A stretch of DNA of 64,000 nt from Sphaerodactylus townsendi. Taxonomy: Eukaryota. Every line of letters begins with the position of its first letter. Position 1 is the stretch's first letter. The notes below the pieces were generated by a model. That model saw nothing but the letters and a program-made list of their open reading frames with translations. It was not told the origin of the DNA and did not search any database. The stretch spans positions 25,730,001 to 25,794,000 of the forward strand of contig NC_059436.1 of assembly GCF_021028975.2 (NCBI RefSeq), read 5' to 3'. Below, piece after piece: positions 1,850 through 50,900 of the stretch. The position numbers were made by a program, and so were the translations under genes.

Positions 1850-4800
1850 CTGAGGTTAAAGGAGGAGAAGAAGGACAAAGGGAAGAGTGAATGTTAAGCG
1901 TTTCTACATCCTGCCACAGGCTCCTTCCAGGAATGCCTAAGTGTCCTGCATTGATAAGTCGCACAACACAGCCCACTGCAAATGAACTACTGTGAGGTAA
2001 GGTAAAGTATACGGAGCAGTGTAATGATCAGGCTCTGCCCCTGGAAAAATTCCTCTTTCTAGCTGATTGTAGTGGATTAGTTGTCCCCAAGACTCTTAAA
2101 GTGACAATAAAACAGGAACAGTAGCTTTGGAGATAGTTCACAACTTCCTCTCATATTTTCCCAGAACCATCTGAAATATTACATCTGAAAGATCAAGAAT
2201 AGTTCTCAGGGCAACCCTGGCCGGGGGCTGAAGGAAGGGACTTGGCAGCCTCCTCCAAATCTGAAACGATCTGAGTACTCAGACAGAAACACCATCGGCT
2301 GGGAGAATATGTTCAGCCACTGCTTACTGCATGGACCTGACTGCAGAGAGCCATTCAGGCCAGTGGAATTACACCACCCCAGGTCTCAGGTACTAAGCAG
2401 GGCTGGGCAAGGTTAGTACTTGGGTGGGAGACCACTAAGGAAGTCCAGGGTTGCTACACAGAGGCAGGCAGTGACAAACCACCTCTGAACGTCTCTGGCC
2501 TTGAAAAGCCCATGATGGGCTGCCATAAATCGGCTGTGACTTGATCGGGAAAAACAATTCAGCCAGTTCCTGTGAACAGCCCATTCCGCAGTCTAAGTTT
2601 ACCTGTGGAAGATTTGGTGGGACTTTGTCCTTTAGCTTCATCATCTGAACCAAAGCCCAGGAACTGCTCATCCTGCACACACACAAAAAAGGTGGGGGGA
2701 GGGAATAGGAGGTTTATGCAGGTCAAGTGGACAGTTCTACATAATTGGGGATTGAAAAGCAATTATAGTAACAATACTTCTGTACAGTGTTATGTCAGAC
2801 AAATGTGCAGCAATGGCTGCTTGACGCTGAAGAAGCGTTCTTTACGCACCACAAGAGAGACGCCCAGGTCCAATGGTGGACCACGGGACACCCATGTGTA
2901 ATAAATCTGATGAGCATGCCCAGAGGCTGCTCTGCCCTGAAAGCAAAGCTCTCTCACTAACACTTGCCCATTATGCACAACAGGAGGAAAAATAAGGAAG
3001 AAGCTACTTCCTGCGCACAGGACCAGAAAAAAGGCCACACTCTTCCAGAAGAAGCCCCTCTGGATCACGCAAGTGGAAGGACCTCCTCATACTAATAATG
3101 CTATAAAATAATTCTGTATTCCCAAGTAAGCTGTGGACCACCCCAAATATTGCACCTTGGGTACTGCGCCCTGTGAAGAGACGTGAAGCTCAAACCAGGT
3201 AGAATCCCCAAAGTGTGCAGTTATATGATTTACTGAACCCCAAAGCTTATTCTGGGTGCAGAGCTTCCAAAAACCTGGGAGCCAATTTCAGCCTTGCTAA
3301 AAAGTAACCAGGTGTCACCAGGAATCACCTATTTCAACCCCAGACTACAAGCAGCACCTGAAAGAAATGAGGGAGGGGGAACCTCCAGCCAGCTTCACAG
3401 GTGACGTCCTTGCAAACCTTTTCCATACACCTTCCTTGCCCTGGTCTTGATGCTGCCAGGAGGCAGGTTTTTCCCAGCTTTGCACAGGACAATGGTGCAC
3501 CTGTGCCCCTCTTGGGGCTTCCCTTGCTTTTATCTTTGAGGGTGTAAACAGGCATGTGGACAGGGGTGAACCGGTGGACATTGTCTACTTGGATTTCCAA
3601 AAGGCTTTTGACAAAGTTCCTCACCAGAGACTGTTGAGAAAACTCAGCAATGAAGGAATAAGAGGGGAAGTCGTCCTATGGATTAAAAACTGGTTGAGAA
3701 ACAGGAAACAAAGAGTGGGTGTAAATGGGAGGTTCTCACAATGGAGAGATGTCGGGAGTGGTGCCCCCCAAGGATCCGTTTTGGGACCAGTGCTCTTTAA
3801 CCTATTCATAAATGACCTGGAAGTAGGGGTGGGTAGCGTGGTGGCCAAGTTTGCAGATGATACCAAATTATGTAGGGATTGGGTGAGAACCAAAAAGGAT
3901 TGCCAACACCTCTTGATCAATTAGGTGAGTGGCCTCACAAATGGCAAATGCAGTTCAATGTAGCAAAATGTAAGAGTGCGATGCACATAGGGGCAAAAAA
4001 TCCAAACTTCACATACACGCTACAGCAGGGTCAGTGCTATCAGTCACAGACCAGGAAAGTGAGGATTTAGGCGTCTTAGTTGGTAGTAGTTCCATGGGAA
4101 TGTGCAACTCAATGCCATGGCAGCTGTGAAAAAAAGAGCAAACTCTAATGCTGGGGATCATTAGGAAAGGGAGATTGATAATAAAACTGCAAAGATTGTC
4201 AATAAGTGCCCTTATATAAAAGCAGTGGTGCGACCCAAGCACTTAGAGTAACTGTGTCCAGCGTTCTGGTCAGCTGCAAGATCTCAAAAAAAAAGATATT
4301 TGAGGGAGATAGAAAAGTGCAGAGAAGGGCAACAAGGATGATTGAGGGACTGGAGCACCTTCCCTATATGAGGGAGAGAGGCTGCAGCGTTTGGAACTCC
4401 TTTAGTTTGGAGAGGAGGCGGCTGAGGGGGGATATGCTTGAAGTCTACAAAATTATGCATCGGGTAGAAAATGTTGACAGAGAAATGTTTCTCTCTTTCT
4501 CACAATATTAGAACCAGGGGGGCATACATTGAAAATGCTGGGGGGAAGAATTAGGACTAATAAAAGGAAACACTTCTTTCAATGCTAACGTGTGATTGGT
4601 GTTTGGAATATGCTGCCACAGGGGAGGTGGTGATGGCCACTAACCTGGATAGCTTTAAAAGGGGCTTGGACAGATTTATGGAGGAGAAGTCGATTTATGG
4701 CTACCAATCTTGATCCTCCTTGATCTGAGATTGCAAATGCCTTAACAGACCAGGTGATCGGGAGCAACAGCCGCAGAAGGCCATTGCGTTCACATCCTAC

Positions 4801-7800
4801 ATGTGAGCTCCCAAAGGCACCTGGTGGGCCACTGCGAGTAGCAGAGAGCTGGACTAGATGGACTTTGGTCTGATCCAGCTGGCTTGTTCTTATGTTCTTC
4901 TTATGTTCTTATCTTATCTTTCCCAACCCTGCTTTGCTGCAAAGTTTTGAGGAAGAGGACAGTCAAACCTCAATGGCAGTCCTGTGAGGAGGGAAGTTCA
5001 CATGTTCCTGGTCCCACCCATAGGGTAGCCATTTCCCCATCCCCTGTCACCTGCTGCGCGCGGGGGAGGGGGGGAATGCTTTTTCAGGCAGCAAGGGAAC
5101 ACCTGGCTACTTTAAACCAATTCAAATCTCCAGGTCTTGATGAGATAAATCCCAGGGTATTAAAAGAACTAGCAGAAGCAATCTCAGAATCACTTGCTAT
5201 ATAGACTTTGAGAACTGGAGAACAAGTCCCAGTGGACTGGAGGAGAGCTAATGTTATCTCCAGCTTCAAAAAGGGAAAAAAGGAGGACCCTAATAATTAC
5301 CGTCCAGTCAGCCTGACATCAATATCAGGAAAGATTCTGGAGCAGATAATTAAACAGATGGTCTGCCAGCACTTAGAAGGGAATGCTGTGATTACAAAAA
5401 GTCAGCATGGGTTTTTGAAAAACAAGTCATGCCACACTAATCTTATCTTTTTTTTTAATGGAGTGTCAAGCTTGGTAGATGAAGGGAATGCATACCTTGA
5501 TTCTAGTAAAGATTTTGACAAGGTGCCCCAAAATATTCTTTCAAGTAAGCTAGTGAAATGTGGACGAGACAATGCTACTATTAGGTGAATTTCTAATTGG
5601 TTGACTGACTGAACTCAAAGGGTACTCATCAATGGCTCATCTTCATCCTGGAGTAAAGTGACTAGTGGGGTGCCACAGGGTTTTGTCCTGGGCCCAGTGC
5701 TATTCAATATTTTTTATCAACAACATGGATGATGGAATAGAAGTCATGCTAATGAAAATTTGCAGATGACGCCAAAATAGGGAGGGGTAGCTAACACCCC
5801 AGAGGACAGAGTCAGAGTTCAAAATGACCGTGACAGATCAGAGAGCTGGGCTAAACAAACAACATTAATTTAAACAGAGATAAGATACTACACTTAGGCA
5901 GAAAAAATGAAATACACAGATACAAGGTGGGTGACACCTGGTTTGACACACTACATGTGAAAGGAATCTGGGAGTCTGAGAAGACCACAACCTGAACATG
6001 AGTCAGCAGTGTGATGCAGCAGTCAAGAAAGCCAATGTGATTCTGGGCTGTATCAATAGGAGTGTAGTGTCGAGGGATGTAATTGTACCTCTGTATTTTG
6101 CATTATTTAGACCTCACCTAGAATATTGATCTCCTGCCTGCCCTGACTCTGGACTGTTTTGGACTATGCTTTTGCCTGTTACCTGCCCTGCCTCCAGCCT
6201 GACTCAACTGTGCCTCGCTTGCTGCCCACCTGGACTCTGGTCTGTCTGGCCACGCACTAGCTAGCACCTGCTGGCGACACCTTATTGGTTAATATAAAAC
6301 AATGTGGATACGTCAAAACAGCAATGAACCAGTAATTATTTTATTGTCAAAAATCATAGAAGCCACCCAATGGCAGTCTGCCACATCTCTATCACAAACA
6401 GAGGGTTCCACAAAATTTCACGTGGTTATTTAAAATATTGCTATTTCTCATCTCTGTATCCAAGGTCGCTTACAATATGGAAAATAATACATACATCCAC
6501 ATATATGCCTTTATTGGCATTAAACAATAAAATGAAATTGTCGAAGGCTTTCACGGCCGGAATCACTTGGGTGCTGTGTGGTTTCCGGGCTGTATGGCCG
6601 TGTTCTAGCAGCATTCTCTCCTGACGTTTCGCCTGCATCTGTGGCTGGCATCTTCAGAGGATCCTCCGAAGATGCCAGCCACAGATGCAGGCGAAACGTC
6701 AGGAGAGAATGCTGCTAGAACACGGCCATACAGCCCGGAAACCACACAGCACCCAAATAAAATGAAAGCCAGTAACACAATTAAAGTATTTAAAAAATCC
6801 AGAGTAAAATCAGCAATTAAAACAGCAGCAGCAGATCACAGAAGAGCAGAATAAATTATATACATTCCTAAAAGGTGTGCTATAAAACCCCCCATAGCCT
6901 CCAGTCACAAAGAGCAACAGTAGAAAATTGAGTCACTGCAGGGGATCAACTTCTGACCCTGGAAAGGGCGTGGGAGAGCAGAGAGATGCCTTGTGCAGAC
7001 CTCTGTTGCGCCAGCTCCATCCCTTTGCCTTCCTGATGGCAAAGGGAAAAAATGACCTTCCTTTGAAAGATAAATAGCTGCCAAGTTAGTGAAGGAAGGA
7101 CTGAAGGGGTGGAATAGATAGAGCAGACTGTCCATTCAGAACCTCAAAAGGAGCCCGGTTGCACAGAAATGACCAACAGATTTTGTCTGCAGCAGGCGTG
7201 TTTTTGCCCTTTCTGTGCTTTTAGGCACCTTATTATCATCAGTTCTTCAAAAGACTCTGCAATGCTTGGAAGCAGTTATAGTCAAGGCCACAAGGCAGCA
7301 CACGCGTCTGCTGAGCCCGAGTTTCGGAAGAAGCAAGAGGCTCTAATGTACTGTAACCAGCATTCACACAGACAACAAGCGTTCACACAGCCTGCCTTGG
7401 ATAGTTCCACTTCTTCAGCACCAGGATGGTGAGACAGCACCTCCAGCACTGGAAAAAGAAGCAGCCATGTGAAGAGGCAACGCCTTGGCTGGGAGCTGCC
7501 AGACAGAGCAAGGCACCTGTAGGCTGCCGGGGGCTGCTTCCTGCATGCCCCTTCCAAAGCCAGGCTGTGGCATCATACAGAGAGGGGGCAGAAGCCAAGC
7601 CATCCAACCAGGCAAGGGGGGGGGAGGACGGGAAGGCCCGGCTGTCTCCTGCTCCCAGCACAACCTGCAGGGCTCCTCTGAGTGCCCTGCAGAAGGAGGA
7701 CAAAACCGAAAACCATTTCTCCTGCCCAAATTCTACCCAACAGGCTGATCTTCACTTTTTATCTTTGACTTTAGTTATAGTCCACCTTTTGCACTAAGAT

Positions 7801-13800: not shown

Positions 13801-14628
13801 TCCTCCGCCGACACGGCCGGGGCCTCACGGTTATAAGGTTCCGCTCCAGCAGGGCGGGCGGCAGGACTCAGACAAGGCGGGCGAGTGACGCTGGGATGGG
13901 GGTCTGCTCCGGGAGCCTCCCCCTCCCCCCCCCACCCCGGCACCCCCGGAACAGCGAGCAAAAGCCGTCCCGGGCAAGGAGGGGCCGGAGACGATGGCGC
14001 TGCTGCTGCTGCTGCTGCTGCTGCTGCGGTAACCGGGCCCCGGTGGGCGCTGCGGCTGCCACTCCCGCTCTGCCCAGCAGGCCGGGCAGGGCAGGGCAGG
14101 GCTGGGCCGAGGGGGGGCGTGTCCGCCGGGCGGGCGGGCGGGCGGGCCGGCGCTCTCCCTCCCTCCCTCCCGGGCACCGGCGCGATCCACGCCCCCCACC
14201 AGGGCCTGGCGGCTCACCTCTCCGCTGCCGGCCTCGACGCCGCAGGCCGCCCGGAACCGGCGCAGGTTGATGCCGATGGCGGCAGAGACCTGGAGCGCCG
14301 CGTCGAATCCCGGCGCCACCCCGGCCGACGAGCCGCAGGAGGAGGACGAGGAGGAGGAGGAAGAGGCGGCGGCGGCGGTGGAGGAGGAGGAGGCCGCCGC
14401 CGCCGCCGCCGCCGCGCAAGGGCCGCCCGCCCCGCCCCCTCCGCTTCCCGCCGCGCCGCCGCCTCCCCCTCCGCCCCCTGCGGGCCGCTCCCGCGGGCGC
14501 TCGTCTGGCGGCTCCCCGCGCAGGCTGCAGACGGCCGGCACCCGCACGCGGCAGCCCCCGAGCCCGCGGCGGCCCCAGGCGCCAGTGCCCGGCCGGGCCG
14601 GGAAGCGCCAGCGACCGCTGTGCGCCAT
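1..14628 (-). CDS. KMT2A: Histone-lysine N-methyltransferase 2A (MLL1), 5' part; coding exons 14628-14218, 2672-2603, 1849-<1 (continues past the window edge)
   Basis: [14 protein letters not shown] menin-binding motif, [30 protein letters not shown]-hooks ([22 protein letters not shown]), [35 protein letters not shown]; GT-AG junctions in phase; frame open to base 1. Confidence 0.98.
2381..2555 (+). mobile_element. 5S rRNA-derived SINE remnant
   Basis: ctaagcagggctgggcaaggttagtacttgggtgggagacc matches the 5S internal control region; followed by a non-5S body. Confidence 0.7.
2603..2672 (-). CDS. KMT2A: KMT2A exon 2 (70 nt)
   Basis: cag|[23 protein letters not shown]|gtaaac. Confidence 0.95.
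3537..4913 (+). mobile_element. CR1 LINE, 5'-truncated (RT C-terminus + 3' UTR), young family
   Basis: [36 protein letters not shown]; (TTCTTATG)n tail; frameshifts. Confidence 0.93.
5085..6127 (+). mobile_element. CR1 LINE fragment (RT N-terminus), older
   Basis: [47 protein letters not shown]. Confidence 0.9.
6538..6755. mobile_element. Penelope-like (PLE) non-autonomous palindromic element with hammerhead motifs
   Basis: 95-bp inverted arms 6567-6661/6662-6756; 12-bp TSD AATAAAATGAAA at 6526-6537 and 6756-6767; same end sequence as the GIY-YIG-bearing copy at 42613. Confidence 0.85.
6619..6661 (-). ncRNA. Minimal type I hammerhead ribozyme motif (PLE type)
   Basis: UCCU-CUGAAGA-U-GCC(loop)GGC-GAAA-CGUC-AGGA: stem I, core, stem II, palindromic ACGU stem III, GUC cleavage triplet. 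Confidence 0.65.
8230..8890 (-). mobile_element. Degenerate L2 LINE fragment
   Basis: [11 protein letters not shown] and [10 protein letters not shown] resemble the L2 RT C-terminus. Confidence 0.6.
9059..9448 (+). mobile_element. CR1 3' end (same family as 3537-4913)
   Basis: Near-identical to 4510-4900; TTCTTATG tail. Confidence 0.9.
10616..10857 (+). mobile_element. Squam3-like tRNA-derived SINE
   Basis: tctaatctggagaactgggtttg...ccttgggctagtcacag...(TTC)n tail; related copies at 46850, 60900, 62445. Confidence 0.75.
11385..11750 (-). mobile_element. CR1 3' fragment
   Basis: [26 protein letters not shown]. Confidence 0.8.
13999..14027. repeat. (CTG)9 microsatellite in KMT2A intron 1
   Basis: Direct reading. 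Confidence 0.9.
14218..14628 (-). CDS. KMT2A: KMT2A coding exon 1 (411 nt)
   Basis: ATG at 14628 (AAGATGGCG); ends GGAGAG|GTGAG. Confidence 0.95.
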
Positions 14629-30000: not shown

Positions 30001-33000
30001 TTGCAGCTTGGGCCAAAGGCTGAACCCCAATATTCATTAGAAACTAAAGTCTTCAGCCTTTGTGGGAAAGTGGCCAAAGGGGTCTTTACCTGCCCACATC
30101 CCCAGTAAAAACAGTCACAAAGTCCAGAACGTGCTCCAAGGAGTCACCCGACGTCTCCAGAAGATCATCAGCAAAGCGGCGCAGAAAAATGAAGAAGTCG
30201 CCCAGGTTATCAGCAAAGAACTCTGTGAATACAAGTCCCACATGAGCTGCTTGCTAGGAACGGTTCTCAGCACTAAGCCACCATCTGCCCCTTTCCCACA
30301 GCCTGCTGAGTGGCTGCTCGAGCCACGGCTAACAGCAGCAACCCTTTCTCTTGGCTGGAAACTCCTGCGAGTCTAGAGAGCCTCCTCTGGAACGGCCGCC
30401 CTTTTGCTCTACCAGCGGCAGATGACAGCAGATGGAAGGCCAAGCGCACCTACGAGGCAGGCCATGCCCAGGATCCATTCCCCGAGGCCTGAATACACAG
30501 GGGGTGGTGGTGGTGGCAGGTGCTTCCAAGGCCAGTGAGAAGAGCAGGACCCCCAAGTTTGTAGTGCTTGAGGCCCAACAGATACAACCAACACCTCACA
30601 ATTACAGAGGGAAAGAGCAGGCTTGACAGCACCCGTTGGCCGCAAGATATCTCGGTCACCTGGCACATGGGCGAGCGCACTCTCCTTCACTTCTGGAAGA
30701 GGGAATGTTAGGTCTGCAAACTCTGTGCCGCGGTTTCCAATGGCCAGCTGGACCAGGAGCAGGGACATGGACACCTGCAGGTTGAGGCAGTTCTGCAGCA
30801 TCTGCGGCTCAGTCATGGCAGCTTTGGTGGAGAGATAGATGGTCATGAGGCGCTCAAACTGCTCCCGGAGGCCGTCCGCTGTGGGGCTGGAGCTCTGCTG
30901 AGCCTCTCGCCAGGCCACCTGCAGGCGGTGGAGGCTTTGGTTGATTTTGATCAGCTGGTCATGCAACCTGCACAAACAGAAAGGGGGGGGGAGAGGGGTC
31001 AAAGATGGAGTCTGAGAGGACTCACTAAAAGAACGCCAGCTGCCCAAGCGGACCCACGGCGGAGGCAAAAACCCAAACCCCTGCTGGACCAGATGAGCTG
31101 CACCCCCCAGAAAAAGGCAATCCATTATTTGAAGGGTGGCTTGGACTGGAGAGGAGTCAAGCATCAGGACTGCACCCTAGAATTTCGTCCACAGCCCTGG
31201 ATGAAAGGCCTCTCTCTCTAAGCAAGTTCATTCTCACACTTACCTTCACACCAGGAGACAGCAGCCAGCAGAGCCCCTGAAGACAGGCCCTGAAGACAGG
31301 TCTTTCCCACCTGCTAGCGGTGCAAACGCAGGAATTTCCAGGGGCTTGGCCATTCCTGTCCCCAACTGATCCTTGTGGAGGCAGTACCTGTGGAATCCCA
31401 GATGCAGCGTGTACTGGGTCAGCACCAAGTTCTCCGTCACCAGGTTGTAGCTGGGGGCAAACTCAGGCTCCTGGTCCATCATAGCTGGGATCAAGCAGGT
31501 CTCCTTTTCCATACCTTTAAGGAAGAGAAAGGGGGAGGTTCTCCACCAGCTCTCAAAAGTGCGTGCGCACACACACAGGATCAAAGGATTCTGTGTCCCA
31601 CAGTTCATCCTCTCTCTTTTTTTGTTATTTGCTGCTCTCCAGAGATCAGCTTGTCTGCAAGCAACATATTATAAAAGCACTACCACTAAAATGATCAGCT
31701 ATTACCTATTCCTCAGCCCCAGCAACTTCCCTCATGGACCCCACTGCAAGCATTTTCAGGGTGGAATTTGACTTGAATCCTGGAGCACCTGAAGGACCTT
31801 AAAGATCACATGTAATCAGCATGAGCTTTTGTGAGTCAAAGTTTGCTTCTTCAGAGACAGCGGAAAGACAGAAAAGAATGTGCCGTCAAAGGCTTTCATG
31901 GCCAGAATCAATTAGCTGTCGTGGGTTTTCTGGACTGTGTGGCCATGATCTCACAGCTTTTGGTCCTAATGTTTTGCCCACATCTGTGGCTGGCATCTTT
32001 AAAGGTATGTATGGCAAGATGTGTTTCTGTCTGTAGCACAAGAGAGATCTGTTTCTCTCACCATGACATACCTCTGAAGATGCCAGCCATGGATGCAGGC
32101 AAAATGTTAGGGAGAAAACTATCAGACCCACAACAGCTAGACTAGAGAAAGAATAGTTTCTCATATTTAACCAGCAAATTACAGGAGGGGAGGGGGGAGA
32201 CTGGAGCAAAGAGGGCTGGTGTCATAAATCAGGTGCGATTCTCTACATCACGGATCTGGACAGCCAGGTTGTTACACAGAACAGATAACCAGAGGGATCC
32301 GAGGTTCTCACCTCTCTCTTCCATGCCATGAAGAGAAGCAGAAGAGCAACACAGTTGGGTAAATAAAGCAATTGAAGGAAGACACTTTCTGACACATGAG
32401 AGACTTAGATGATGTCAGCAAAGGGTCATGATAGGATACAAATAATTAAGAACAGCCTAGTCAAGTTTCTAAGAAGGGTGGCCTACGAACAAGCAGGAAG
32501 TCCTTCAAGAGGGCAGCCTGGAAGGTTTCCTGGCCACCGTGGGGGAGGCGCTCCCCAAAGCCAGGCCCACTGCTCACGGCTCACCTTTCAGATGCACGTT
32601 CTTGCTCCGCTGCTCCTCCTCATTCAGCTCTTTCAGAGCACAGTAGGTGGGGTCAAATGTGAGGAGCCGAGGAGACCGGGGCTTGCAGAAGGGCTGGCAC
32701 AGCCTGAGGAGGGCAGCCCCCAAGTTCAGGAAGAAGGCGTCTGAGGCATACATCTGGAGGAAGATCTCTGGCATCTGGTTGGTCCAGATCTTGGTGCGGC
32801 CTGCGTTGGCATGCAGGCAGTTCCCAAGCCAGGACAGGATCCGGTGTTTGGTCTGCGGGGACAGCTGCAGCAGGTTCTTCAGCATCTGATAGATCTTCTC
32901 GTGGAACTGGGACATGAACTGGTGCCAAGACAGACAGACAGACACGTGCATGTGAGAATATGCACTCCAAGATGAGCATCCAACAGCTACCACAGTATTG

Positions 33001-41950: not shown

Positions 41951-42612
41951 CAGCGCTTTGGACAGGGTTGGCCAAAGGAGGGGGAAGTCAGTTCTGTTGG
42001 GCGTAAGGGGAATCCGCCTGGAACTGAAGCCAGCTGAAGACCAAAAAAGGAGAATTATTTAAAACTTCTGCAAGAATATATAATCCAATAACAGAGTAAA
42101 ATAACAACCAGCTGTTCCCAAAAGGCATTAATTAAAGACTAACTGGATAGCGTTGCAGAGTTACATACAGGATCCCAAAGCAAGATGTTCCCATCACCAG
42201 TCAGTCCAGAGGGTCAAACAGCCAGAGCTCTCCACAGACAGAGCATCTATGATGGTGAACCAGGAACCTGTAGCAAGGCTTCCCCAGGAAGCACACAGGG
42301 CCACACTGACGTATTTCTGCCAAGAGGCCAGAGACTCCTTGAGCAATCAAAACAATACTGAATGACCTAAGACAGTCACACGTCCAACCCACAACTAGGT
42401 GACCTTAGGGGCCAAGACAAGATAATGGTCATAAGCCATCCCTACCATGATGCCATTGCAATATTTCTAGTCCCCTTAATTGCCTGGACTGGCACCAGAT
42501 GTCTCAGTCTTGAAGGCTCCATGAATAACATAGCAGCAAATATTTAAATGCCCACCTGGCTATTACCAGTACATTCGTCTTGGTAGCAGTTAAAATTCCT
42601 CCTATTTAATGT

Positions 42613-43430
42613 AATGTTGAAAGCTTTCATGGCTGGAATCAACTGGTTGTTTTGGTTTTTTTGGGCTGTGTGGCTGTGGTCTGGTCATTTTTGTTCCTCA
42701 CGTCTTGCCTGCAGCTGTGGCTGGCATCTTCAGAGGGATGTCACAGCAAGATGTGTTTCTGTTCGTGACACACTATGGAATGATTAGGCTCTGTACGCAG
42801 ATGGTCGAATGGGAAAACTGGTGGAAAAACATAACCTTCAAACAATTTTCAGACCCACCAGAAAAGTACAACAAACGCTACAGTCAGCAAAGGACCAGAG
42901 TAACCCCTTTACCTGCGCAGGAGTGTATCCTATATCATGCAGCTGTGGACAAGTATACGTAGGGACTACAAAATACAGCATTCTGTCAAGAATGAAAGAA
43001 CATGAAAGGCCCTGCTGACTAATCCAACCTGAGAAATCAGCAGTAGCTGAATATGCTCTAAACCAGCGGTTCTCAACCTGTGGGTCGCGACCCCTTTGGG
43101 GGTCGAACGACCCTTTCACAGGGGTCACCTAAGACTCTTTGCATCAGTTTTCTCCATCTGTAAAATGGATAAATGTTAGGGTTGGGGGTCACCACAACAT
43201 GAGGAACTGTGTTAAAAAGTCCCAGCATTAGGAAACTTGAGAACCACTTCTTTAAATCAAGTTGGTCATAGGATCTTATTTGAAGACACAGAAATTCTTG
43301 ATAATTCCAACAGCTACTACGTCAGACTACAGAGGAAAGCCATTGCAACCCACTAACACCAGGACAGTTTCAACAAAAAGGAAGAGAAACTGAAAATAAA
43401 AAAAATCTGGCTACTGGTACTAAAAAAATG
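42613..43430 (+). mobile_element. Penelope-like retroelement fragment with GIY-YIG endonuclease remnant and inverted 5' pLTR
   Basis: GVYPISCSCGQVYVGTTKYSILSRMKEHERPC*...EKSAVAE...HRILFEDTEILD; inverted family end at 42613-42770. Confidence 0.85.
43064..43249. mobile_element. SPIN/URR1-like hAT MITE nested in the PLE
   Basis: CAGCGGTTCTCAACCTGTGGGTCGCGACCCC...TTGAGAACCACT; degenerate 8-bp TSD ctctaaac/ctttaaat. Confidence 0.85.
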
Positions 43431-47900: not shown

Positions 47901-50900
47901 GGCAGCGCCAATGAAAAGGAACTGTTGGTGGGCTCGGCTGTGGATGACCCCAGAGGCCTCTACCAGTGCAACTCTGAGAAAGCCAACGGGTCTCTGCAGC
48001 TGTACTTTCGCAGTGCGTGAGTCTCTTTTTCTTCACAAAGAAGCAGGGTTGGCCCAGGCAGTCACAAGTGTGATGTCCAGAGGCTCCTCCCCCTCTGATG
48101 ATATGCTGCCTGTAGGTGTGGTGGGGGGGACTCAACAGGCAGTCTGCAGAGTGGCTGACGGGAGGGAGGGGGTGGCAGTAAAGGCGGAGTGCAGATGCCC
48201 TTCCCACGTGGCCCCGCACTGTTTGATTGGCCCTGGCAACGTGGCTTTTGTTTTCAGATTCTGCTGTGGACCAGCTTTTCCTTGGCAAGAAGAGGTGGCC
48301 CCGAGTTCTGTTGCAAACTCACCTGGCCACGGGCCAAGAAGGGCCCTTGGGACCAGCTTGGTTTCCGCACTTTGGCTTTCCAGCCCCCCAAAGGATCACC
48401 CCTGCTCCAGAGATGCCCTTTGGGCACAGAGGAGTGGGGCAGGAGGTTTGCCAGAGGGCTTCTCAGGAGAGCTTGGAAGTGGGGGGTGGGGGGTAGGTTT
48501 TAAACCCAAGCCTCGTGCTCCTTTGTTTGGCTGCAGCCTGCCACCATCTCTGGTTTGAAGGATGTCTCGTGAATAAATGAAACTCTTAAGAAGGAAGCAC
48601 CTGACTTTGGGCTGCGGTTTTGTCAACAGGATGCAATTCTGAGCTCTTGAATATATTGGCTGCAGCTGGGTCTTAACATCGTGTCAGAGAAACTGCTGCC
48701 TGTCCCTTTCCATATTATTTTGGAAAATGAAAGTCCAGTTTCCTGTATGTGTTGTTAGAATGAAACCAAATGTAAAAATCAATGACTTCTGTGAACATCT
48801 GGTAATCTGGGGACCTTTCTGTCAGCCTGGCTCCTGACTGGGGTTTGGAGCTCATAGAATCCAAGAGGAAAAGAGACCGTGAAACTGACCGGAGGTTTCC
48901 CTCCCACCCCAATGCAAAGCTAAAGGCCGGGCAGAGGGGCCCAGTGGGCAGAGAATCACTCTTCTCCATGCCTGAGACACCCATTCCCCTGTAGGGCCAC
49001 CTGGGTGTCCGTCCTGGGAGGGATTGCATTTCCTGGAGTGTTGCATCCTGGAGAGAGCACCCGAGACCCTACTTTCTGGCCTGGGGGTTGTGGGGCAAGA
49101 GGGGTCCAGCTGGCCAGGCTGGCTGGAATAGTGGCCCAAGGGAGGTGACGGAAGAGGAATGCTGTTCAGACAAGGTGCAAAGTAATGCAGCTGAAGTTGA
49201 GAAAGTTTTTGCAACAAATTGGAAATGGGGGAAAATGCACACCCATCCCCAGCAGTGGGGGATGGGCAGTCTGCACATGCTCAGAAGCATGCTCTGGGCT
49301 CAGTCATGTGAGTCAGGGCTGCTTGTTCCAGGTGTAGGCTGAGTGCTCTCTCTTGCCACAGTGTGCCAGTATTGTGTCCAGCTGAACTCTGCTGTGGTGA
49401 TAGGAATGGTGGCGGCCGAAGTCGTGGCCACAGCGTTGCTGGTGGCAGCAGTGTGGTGCCTTGCTGCTCAGGAGCCCGGCCGACGATCTCAAGGTGAGAG
49501 GAGGCAGGGAGGAGAGGCCTCTGCTGGGGACGGCCGTCACTCTCAGCGGGAGCCGGACCACCAGGGCGTGGTGCCCTGTCGCTTGGGGCCTGTCCTGGAG
49601 CAATTTGGCCGCAGGCCCTCTCAGCTTGTTTCTGTATGTTCCTGGGCAGCCCTTGGGCAAGGGGGGGGGGCCCTCTCTAAGAAGCCGGAGCAAATGTGGT
49701 TGCTTCCCTGGCTACAGATGGTGGGAGGTGTGGTCTGCTTAAATGCTGGCGGCGGGGTTTGGGTATGTTGTGCTGCTTAGATGCTCAGTGGTGTCCAGCA
49801 AGTGTGCTATGTGGAGTGGTCCAGGGTCTGGTGTGTGGGTGTGTGTGGACGGCAGTTGTTGAAGTCCTGATGAAGGAGAGGGCCAAGGGAGAGGGCCAAC
49901 AGCTTCCTTCCCAGGCATGCAGAGACCACCCACAACCAGCTGACTGATCTGCCTNNNNNNNNNNNNNNNNNNNNNNNNNNNNNNNNNNNNNNNNNNNNNN
50001 NNNNNNNNNNNNNNNNNNNNNNNNNNNNNNNNNNNNNNNNNNNNNNNNNNNNNNNNNNNNNNNNNNNNNNNNNNNNNNNNNNNNNNNNNNNNNNNNNNNN
50101 NNNNNNNNNNNNNNNNNNNNNNNNNNNNNNNNNNNNNNNNNNNNNNNNNNNNNNNNNNNNNNNNNNNNNNNNNNNNNNNNNNNNNNNNNNNNNNNTCTGA
50201 CAAGCAAAGCTGCTTCGCTACAGCCCTACCATCAGGCTCTACCTTGCGGTGAGCAAGGAGGGCTCTTGCTCTGGGCAGCTGCCGCCTGTGCTTTCTTGCC
50301 CACCAGGGCTCACGGAGGGCCCCCACCCCAGCGCTAGCCCTGGCATTTGCATGTGTCTGGGTGGGCTGCAGCTGCAGCTGCCGTTGCAATTCCATTCACA
50401 GCACTAAAAACATGCAAACCAAAAGCCGGTGGCATTCAAAGGCAACTGCAAACGAACTCTACCCGGACAGATGCTGATGCTGATGCAGCTGTAATTGTGA
50501 TTACTGCTTTGAGACTCTTTGGTAGAGGAAAGCGGGGTGTAGCAACCAACTCTTCTTCTTTTTCTGGATCTATTCATGCCTTATTAATCTGAAAAAGGAA
50601 AGGGTTAATAGTGCAAAATTTGGGGGAGGGGGGGCGTCTAATTAGCGACATCACCATAGATCAGCCAATCAGTGGCCTGTGGCTTATGCTTAAGAACTTG
50701 CATGATTTTTTTCTTCCTGGAGGGCAAACCTGGAGAGGAAGCGTGCAGGTGATCACAGAGAGGGCGCTTCCAAAGCAAGCCATTGTGGCATTCAGGATGT
50801 GGCACCTTGACTGCTCTCTGGAGGGTGGGATTGCAAAAGCCGAAAGCGGGGTCCAGCACTAAACGTGGGCCTCTCCCGCTCGTTCTCTCCTCTGCCCACT

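Follow-up and report, generated by a model that had tools for sequence, protein, structure and literature searches.

A loop-less palindrome in KMT2A intron 1 probably consists of two head-to-head, 5'-truncated Poseidon-type Penelope ends

During our analysis of a 64-kb stretch of DNA (called the window throughout, and the frame for all coordinates) we found that a loop-less 190-bp palindrome in intron 1 of KMT2A is probably composed of two 5'-truncated ends of a Poseidon-type Penelope element, placed head to head inside a 12-bp target-site duplication (TSD), which likely arrived in a single insertion and are likely immobile and non-cleaving. We hold it very probable that the palindrome is a dead-end insertion product, and we favour, with moderate confidence, priming from both target strands as the source of its mirror arm. 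The arrangement itself is already published; only two-strand priming and mimicry of element sequence by the target site reach beyond what is known.

The exon 1 peptide matches KMT2A chains in the PDB (E-value 7.5e-9) and the gene lies on the minus strand, with the coding part of exon 1 at 14215-14628 (ATG at 14628, donor position approximate) and exon 2 at 2603-2672, starting at 2672. Since the palindrome falls between the exon 1 ATG and the start of exon 2 on this strand, it lies within intron 1, as an earlier sequence-only reading of this DNA had placed it, and its distances to the flanking splice sites are 3.9 kb and ~7.4 kb. The same intron holds a stop-free stretch at 3451-3921 (plus strand), a putative CR1-type reverse-transcriptase fragment, and the left flank of the palindrome (6000-6130) carries another highly repeated sequence, with a summed depth of 1e5 to 5e5 at 6000-6043. 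Exon-like frames at ~21200-55700, mostly on the minus strand, presumably belong to the ATP5MG, UBE4A and CD3 genes beside KMT2A. The window contains 241 N, with a run near 49950-50200.

The two arms (6567-6661 and 6662-6756) are reverse complements of 95 bp each, with no spacer and one mismatch, A at 6656 against C at 6667, and no other palindrome in the 64-kb window pairs 14 or more bases per arm when a single mismatch and a loop of up to 10 nt are allowed. It is bounded by a 12-bp direct repeat, AT-rich, at 6526-6537 on the left and 6756-6767 on the right, for which the chance expectation from local base composition is ~1.5e-6 per register pair. The sequence-only reading had reported the loop-less palindrome, its single mismatch and the TSD, and we reproduced all of them at the same coordinates, amending it in that position 6756 is common to the right arm and the TSD; position 6537, likewise, is also the next base of the parent element. 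Overlooked by that reading were the 29 bp between the left TSD and the left arm (6538-6566, minus strand), which have no mirror copy and are part of the element, namely a one-sided Penelope 'tail' of the kind reported in PMC11167929 and PMC8557442. Taken as element sequence, the left arm (6567-6663, minus strand) is a 5'-truncated pLTR and ORF start of Poseidon type, sense on the KMT2A strand, and the right arm (6660-6756, plus strand) is its inverted counterpart without a tail, the two having in common a 4-bp self-complementary GATC at 6660-6663. An inverted 5'-truncated copy adjoins the 5' end and the entire unit lies inside the TSD, as in Penelope insertions.

We assigned the element to its family by comparison with PAc (Poseidon_Ac), a member of the Penelope/Poseidon clade from Anolis carolinensis (PMC11167929). 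Between the ribozyme cut and the last base of the tail, 71 of 85 nt match the PAc RNA without gaps, as counted by eye against Fig. S1 of that paper. The PAc ORF is reported there to start at stem II of the hammerhead, with the cut 26 nt after the start codon; here, too, the ORF starts at stem II inside the hammerhead and the cut lies 26 nt past the start codon. The left arm and tail together encode the first 38 codons of the retroelement ORF (6538-6651, minus strand), all open, in the layout of PAc (PMC11167929), and each arm carries the first codons of the ORF. Protein searches with the 38-residue ORF-start peptide returned none of 7 candidates and then 6 matches, none of the 6 with a reverse-transcriptase or GIY-YIG Pfam domain; because there was no reverse-transcriptase match, we draw the link from these codons to a full ORF from PMC11167929. 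Further likenesses to PAc as described there are the ~30-nt tail, the AT-rich target with ATT, and the 3' end of the left arm, which falls inside the start zone of PAc reverse transcription. In contrast to PAc, the ORF here has 114 nt only, without the reverse transcriptase, the endonuclease or the binding region at +115 to +172, and the two copies are inverted rather than in tandem. The PAc match, the ORF start inside the hammerhead, the tail and the TSD together bear out the Penelope-like origin that had been proposed from sequence. The repeat family suggests a squamate reptile as host. As an observation on the side, the first 39 residues of protein P0006 resemble the Poseidon ORF start (66%) and the remainder is a caspase domain, which may be an exonised repeat or a gene-prediction artefact; protein P0002 stops exactly at the tail boundary.

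A minimal-hammerhead descriptor, which was composed after the motif had been seen and allowed the C variant, gave two matches in the 64-kb window, one per arm, and none in 200 block shuffles. The first is a minimal type I hammerhead with an intact core at 6619-6661 on the minus strand, predicted to cut between 6623 and 6622, in which stem I pairs 6661-6658 with 6622-6619, stem II pairs 6649-6647 with 6633-6631, stem III is loop-less and self-complementary, and the core occupies 6657-6651 with an extra U at 6650. The second (6662-6704, plus strand) carries a derived U4C at 6667, and its mirror cut position lies between 6700 and 6701. Judged by sequence, the conserved core and stems I and II expected of an active hammerhead are present, intact on the minus strand and with U4C on the plus strand. 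The earlier reading was therefore right in assigning a minimal hammerhead to each strand, with the minus copy intact and cut at 6623/6622, and in setting the mismatch within the plus-strand core. Its picture of back-to-back ribozymes acting as partners does not hold, since the motifs lie on opposite strands and a single transcript carries one only; for this reason no hammerhead dimer can form in cis. Rfam returned no match at gathering score over the 64 kb, and at E-values up to 10 over 6400-6900 it gave 14 sub-threshold matches, none of them a hammerhead, which we discarded as generic hairpins, mostly miRNA; of the covariance search and folding that the earlier reading had proposed as checks, the Rfam search yielded no hammerhead and folding gave a very stable hairpin. 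We considered 6667 as a trace of A-to-I editing and abandoned this, as a point change suffices.

These motifs resemble the minimal type I hammerheads of Penelope-like elements (PLEs) described in PMC4209133 in their short stem I, the extra base between positions 9 and 10.1, the G10.1-C11.1 pair and the self-complementary 15.2-16.2. The same paper reports that minimal hammerheads show no activity as monomers and notes metazoan PLE hammerhead pairs on opposite strands about 100-700 bp apart; compared with those pairs, the two motifs here abut directly and one has U4C. The dimer result of Lunse et al. 2017 is cited via the review PMC6765202, and U4C is reported to reduce the in vitro activity of a viroid ribozyme (PMC3088659).

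Contigs from 4 of 22 listed sequencing runs were aligned to the window, X1 and X2 being two samples of organism A (either of which may be the window's own source sample), X4 coming from organism B and X5 from organism C. The left junction is crossed with 0 differences by a contig spanning 6226-6561 in X1 and X2, and the right junction by contigs running from 6734 or 6736 to 7300 in X1, X2 and X4. The X4 contig has 6 other letters and 2 indels in 567 flank bases (~1%) and none in the element part; since the right junction is also present in organism B, the insertion predates, or is shared across, this ~1% split. A hole in X4 at 6440-6483 and the lack of a junction contig in X5 carry no weight. 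Among the 32 records listed of 150,937 there was no contig identical to the palindrome centre, so that the centre itself is without read confirmation, and no empty allele appeared among the 15 joints listed of 369. Summed depth over the element was 1.7-7.2 million per bin (X1, X2, X4) against ~18-37 over the unique right flank, figures that differ from copy number and mark a very abundant repeat only. At the left-arm positions listed this copy has the majority letter everywhere except 6568, and the CpG observed/expected ratio is 0.67-0.74 in the element against 0.22-0.23 in the flanks, from which we conclude that the copy is young. The 'recently mobilised' of the sequence-only reading accordingly stands as regards a young copy, qualified by the right junction shared with organism B across ~1% of flank divergence. 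In X1, X2 and X4 the majority letter at 6667 is T, which makes up 63-71% of summed depth; in X5 it is not.

The two 3' ends of the unit can be read against the start sites of PAc, whose reverse transcription begins internally at +111 to +118 and whose optional tail, 30-40 bp long, corresponds to the sequence separating two start sites (PMC11167929). The left arm ends at +114 from its ORF ATG and the right arm at +84/85 from its own ATG (6672), i.e., 29-30 nt earlier, leaving a tail of 29-30 bp on the left arm only. Among 24 listed of 1,732 rows, loose contig ends numbered 249, 236, 224 and 101 at 6537, and 118 (X1) and 124 (X4) behind 6754; because the position of the inner PAc site is given only in a figure, we matched the right-arm end to it by tail length and this pile-up of loose ends. 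In D. virilis Penelope the tail is recognised by the endonuclease, as reported in PMC11167929. According to the same source the PAc template requires the first 172 nt of the ORF, and since the ORF here stops at +114/115 the unit is likely not re-mobilisable.

Among the same 24 rows, loose ends behind 6663 numbered 160, 196 and 175 contigs (X1, X2 and X4). One parent subfamily matches through the GATC at 6660-6663, where it lies just upstream of the hammerhead, and then diverges; another subfamily leaves at 6660. The GATC is therefore a 4-bp palindrome native to both arms, and the palindrome is loop-less because the join falls on it. All 15 listed joints (of 369) run from left arm to right arm, i.e., are head-to-head joins at other loci, and they use 15 different position pairs, share 0-4 letters and are asymmetric by 7-68 nt. 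This centre is also traversed by at least four contigs that derive from other loci; they show 5-14 differing letters and 0, 3, 3 and 6 gap letters, and the crossing in X1 record 7 is ungapped. From the variety of these joints and contigs we conclude that head-to-head joins are common and varied, and that they lack a loop when the join happens to fall at GATC. The window has an older head-to-head pair of the Poseidon-type family at 31885-32116 (77-87% alike), with a left-arm tail, a junction upstream of the hammerheads and both cores decayed, for which a TSD was not established. At 42608-42736 there is a single older copy with tail, 77% alike, which extends upstream into further pLTR sequence, as do the loose ends behind 6660. 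In X2 some contigs jump back to 6537 from 6660 or 6661, with 7 or 13 letters inserted and depths of 900 and 425; these head-to-tail units of ~131-138 bp at other loci are possibly partial tandems or retrozyme-like arrays of the family.

In computed folds, which are equilibrium values with proteins absent, the full unit forms one hairpin at -212.5 kcal/mol (z -29.6), in agreement with the very stable hairpin expected by the sequence-only reading, and on the KMT2A strand the mismatch becomes a G-U pair, leaving the hairpin fully paired. Forcing the hammerhead helices in context costs 74.6 kcal/mol on the minus strand and 71.4 kcal/mol on the plus strand, and stem I pairing computed for the KMT2A strand stays under 1e-44 at each of four transcript lengths, compared with 0.03-0.04 in a single arm. 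The head-to-head layout means that, on either strand, transcription reaches the antisense arm ahead of the ribozyme, and the arms in KMT2A pre-mRNA are predicted to zip into a fully paired hairpin of ~93 bp before the ribozyme folds. The proposal that the RNA folds either as ribozyme or as hairpin is thus disfavoured by the model, with the mirror arm transcribed first and the hammerhead 71-75 kcal/mol dearer, and by computation the hammerhead would be inaccessible in the natural transcript. Isolated arms folded no better than shuffles in any of five pieces (z -0.77 to 0.69), and in a cofold of two isolated hammerheads the active dimer was not the best structure, a result we regard as uninformative. 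The PAc ribozyme needs the PAc protein, and it is not needed for insertion (PMC11167929).

Perfect palindromes can arise as artefacts, and with no centre-identical contig among the 32 records listed we considered an assembly or library fold-back; however, both junctions, in which the element orientations are opposite, occur in contigs of two samples, and a TSD, a one-sided tail and an arm mismatch are not expected from a fold-back read. As far as tested, the palindrome is not an assembly artefact, and we regard such an origin as extremely improbable. The sequence-only reading had instead seen a tiny, protein-free PLE derivative; as a rival we considered such a distinct mobile unit, a non-autonomous palindromic mini-element that the Poseidon protein would copy whole, with a functional hairpin or ribozyme. 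The clean TSD, the retained CpGs and the recurrence, at four or more other loci, of a centre at this position with little or no loop are consistent with this, and the ungapped X1 record 7, which would also be expected if a subfamily spread as a palindrome, counts against our reading of the unit as a two-end stump. Nevertheless, those centres differ in their gap letters and no two listed joints share a position pair, the arms hold the start of an ORF in a published Penelope insertion architecture, the unit lacks +115 to +172, its one hammerhead per transcript is buried in the computed fold, and the PAc ribozyme requires protein and is dispensable for insertion (PMC11167929); we therefore judge a mini-element to be very improbable. 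We give still less credence to selection having retained the palindrome to regulate KMT2A through editing, small RNA, splicing or cleavage of the pre-mRNA, which we hold to be highly improbable. Its site in intron 1, its full pairing on the KMT2A strand and the presence of the right junction in 3 of the 4 runs compared would agree with such a role, but the copy is young and belongs to a very abundant repeat, it lies at the distances given above from both splice sites, and its conservation was seen only across two organisms ~1% apart.

Within the reading as a dead-end insertion, what has to be decided is how the mirror arm arose. PAc cleaves the two strands of its target and extends each, with a preference for ATT in AT-rich DNA (PMC11167929), and the putative minus-strand nick here follows ATT. 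Under two-strand priming, the endonuclease would make two nicks at the AT-rich site, one per strand and 12 nt apart. Priming of cDNA from the plus-strand end at the outer start site (+114) would give the tail, and priming from the minus-strand end at the inner site (+84/85) would give none. Each cDNA would be copied from a pLTR copy and stop near the 5' edge of the hammerhead, the self-complementary GATC ends would anneal to make a palindrome without a loop, and a later single point change at 6667 would break the plus-strand core. The alternative is that the mirror arm came from self-priming, in which a cDNA or antisense template folds back near GATC and is copied, and the endonuclease resolves the product at the tail boundary. 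Self-priming on an antisense template is the account preferred for head-to-head palindromic junctions in PMC3846280, and the tail is ascribed to endonuclease resolution in PMC8557442; most other listed junctions, moreover, keep 7-68 nt unpaired, a possible loop. The arms are nearly identical and share a minority letter at 6568/6755, both of which would also be expected from direct copying and count against two-strand priming. At this centre, however, a fold-back would need a single base pair closing a two-base loop, which seems implausible, whereas GATC ends anneal over 4 bp, and PAc is reported to extend both strands, with insertion ends that coincide with reverse-transcription starts (PMC11167929). 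We rate self-priming as a serious though rather unlikely source of the mirror arm. A search by title and abstract start, with subscription journals outside its coverage, found no printed two-strand or twin-priming account of Penelope inversions.

A more specific form of two-strand priming, which we put forward only tentatively and hold to be somewhat less probable than even, is that the host site mimics the tail, so that both strands are nicked, one cDNA grows from each nick using two internal starts, and the sticky ends join at GATC. A host 8-mer across the putative plus-strand nick (6763-6770, plus strand) equals tail bases 6553-6546 (minus strand), a match noticed after the fact; at least 8 letters are shared with the tail by 156 of 11,091 intron 24-mers (1.4%) and by 523 of 62,901 window 24-mers. 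The host flank at 6763-6781 also bears a loose likeness to the sequence beyond the tail; this and the 8-mer may reflect mimicry by the target, a remnant of an old tail, or coincidence.

According to PMC3846280, a typical Penelope insertion has a pLTR that overlaps an inverted pLTR next to it, a TSD of 9-10 bp and a 31-bp tail at one end, and that paper describes palindromes at head-to-head junctions; PMC8557442 and PMC8969392 present the same insertion structure. Our unit shares with these the inverted head-to-head pLTR, the tail at one end, a similar TSD and an overlap or palindrome at the junction, and differs from the units described there in that the two ends stand alone (218 bp) and the overlap is a 4-bp GATC with no loop. 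It also resembles the non-LTR retrozymes of bioRxiv 10.64898/2026.07.22.740005 in being small, non-coding, hammerhead-bearing and PLE-derived, but these are reported as head-to-tail tandems with at least two ribozymes on one strand, and we rejected a retrozyme identity as there is one hammerhead per strand, head to head and not in tandem.

By itself the locus matters little, being a single young member of an abundant repeat, arranged in a way already known. It is valuable as an unusually clean specimen, in which both ends, the TSD and the 4-bp junction can be compared with the recently mapped start sites of PAc and with its two-strand activity. The origin of the tandem and inverted structures of Penelope is described in PMC8557442 as still undefined, and two-strand priming, if true, would account at once for the inverted pLTR and for a tail on one side only. 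Were the joint reading of two-strand priming and target mimicry true, the unit would be a frozen record of how Penelope inverted ends form, and merely counting such stumps, of which this genome has many, would suffice to test the two-strand model. If two-strand priming is true, such genomes would also accumulate long perfect hairpins in their introns, as putative substrates for editing or small RNA.
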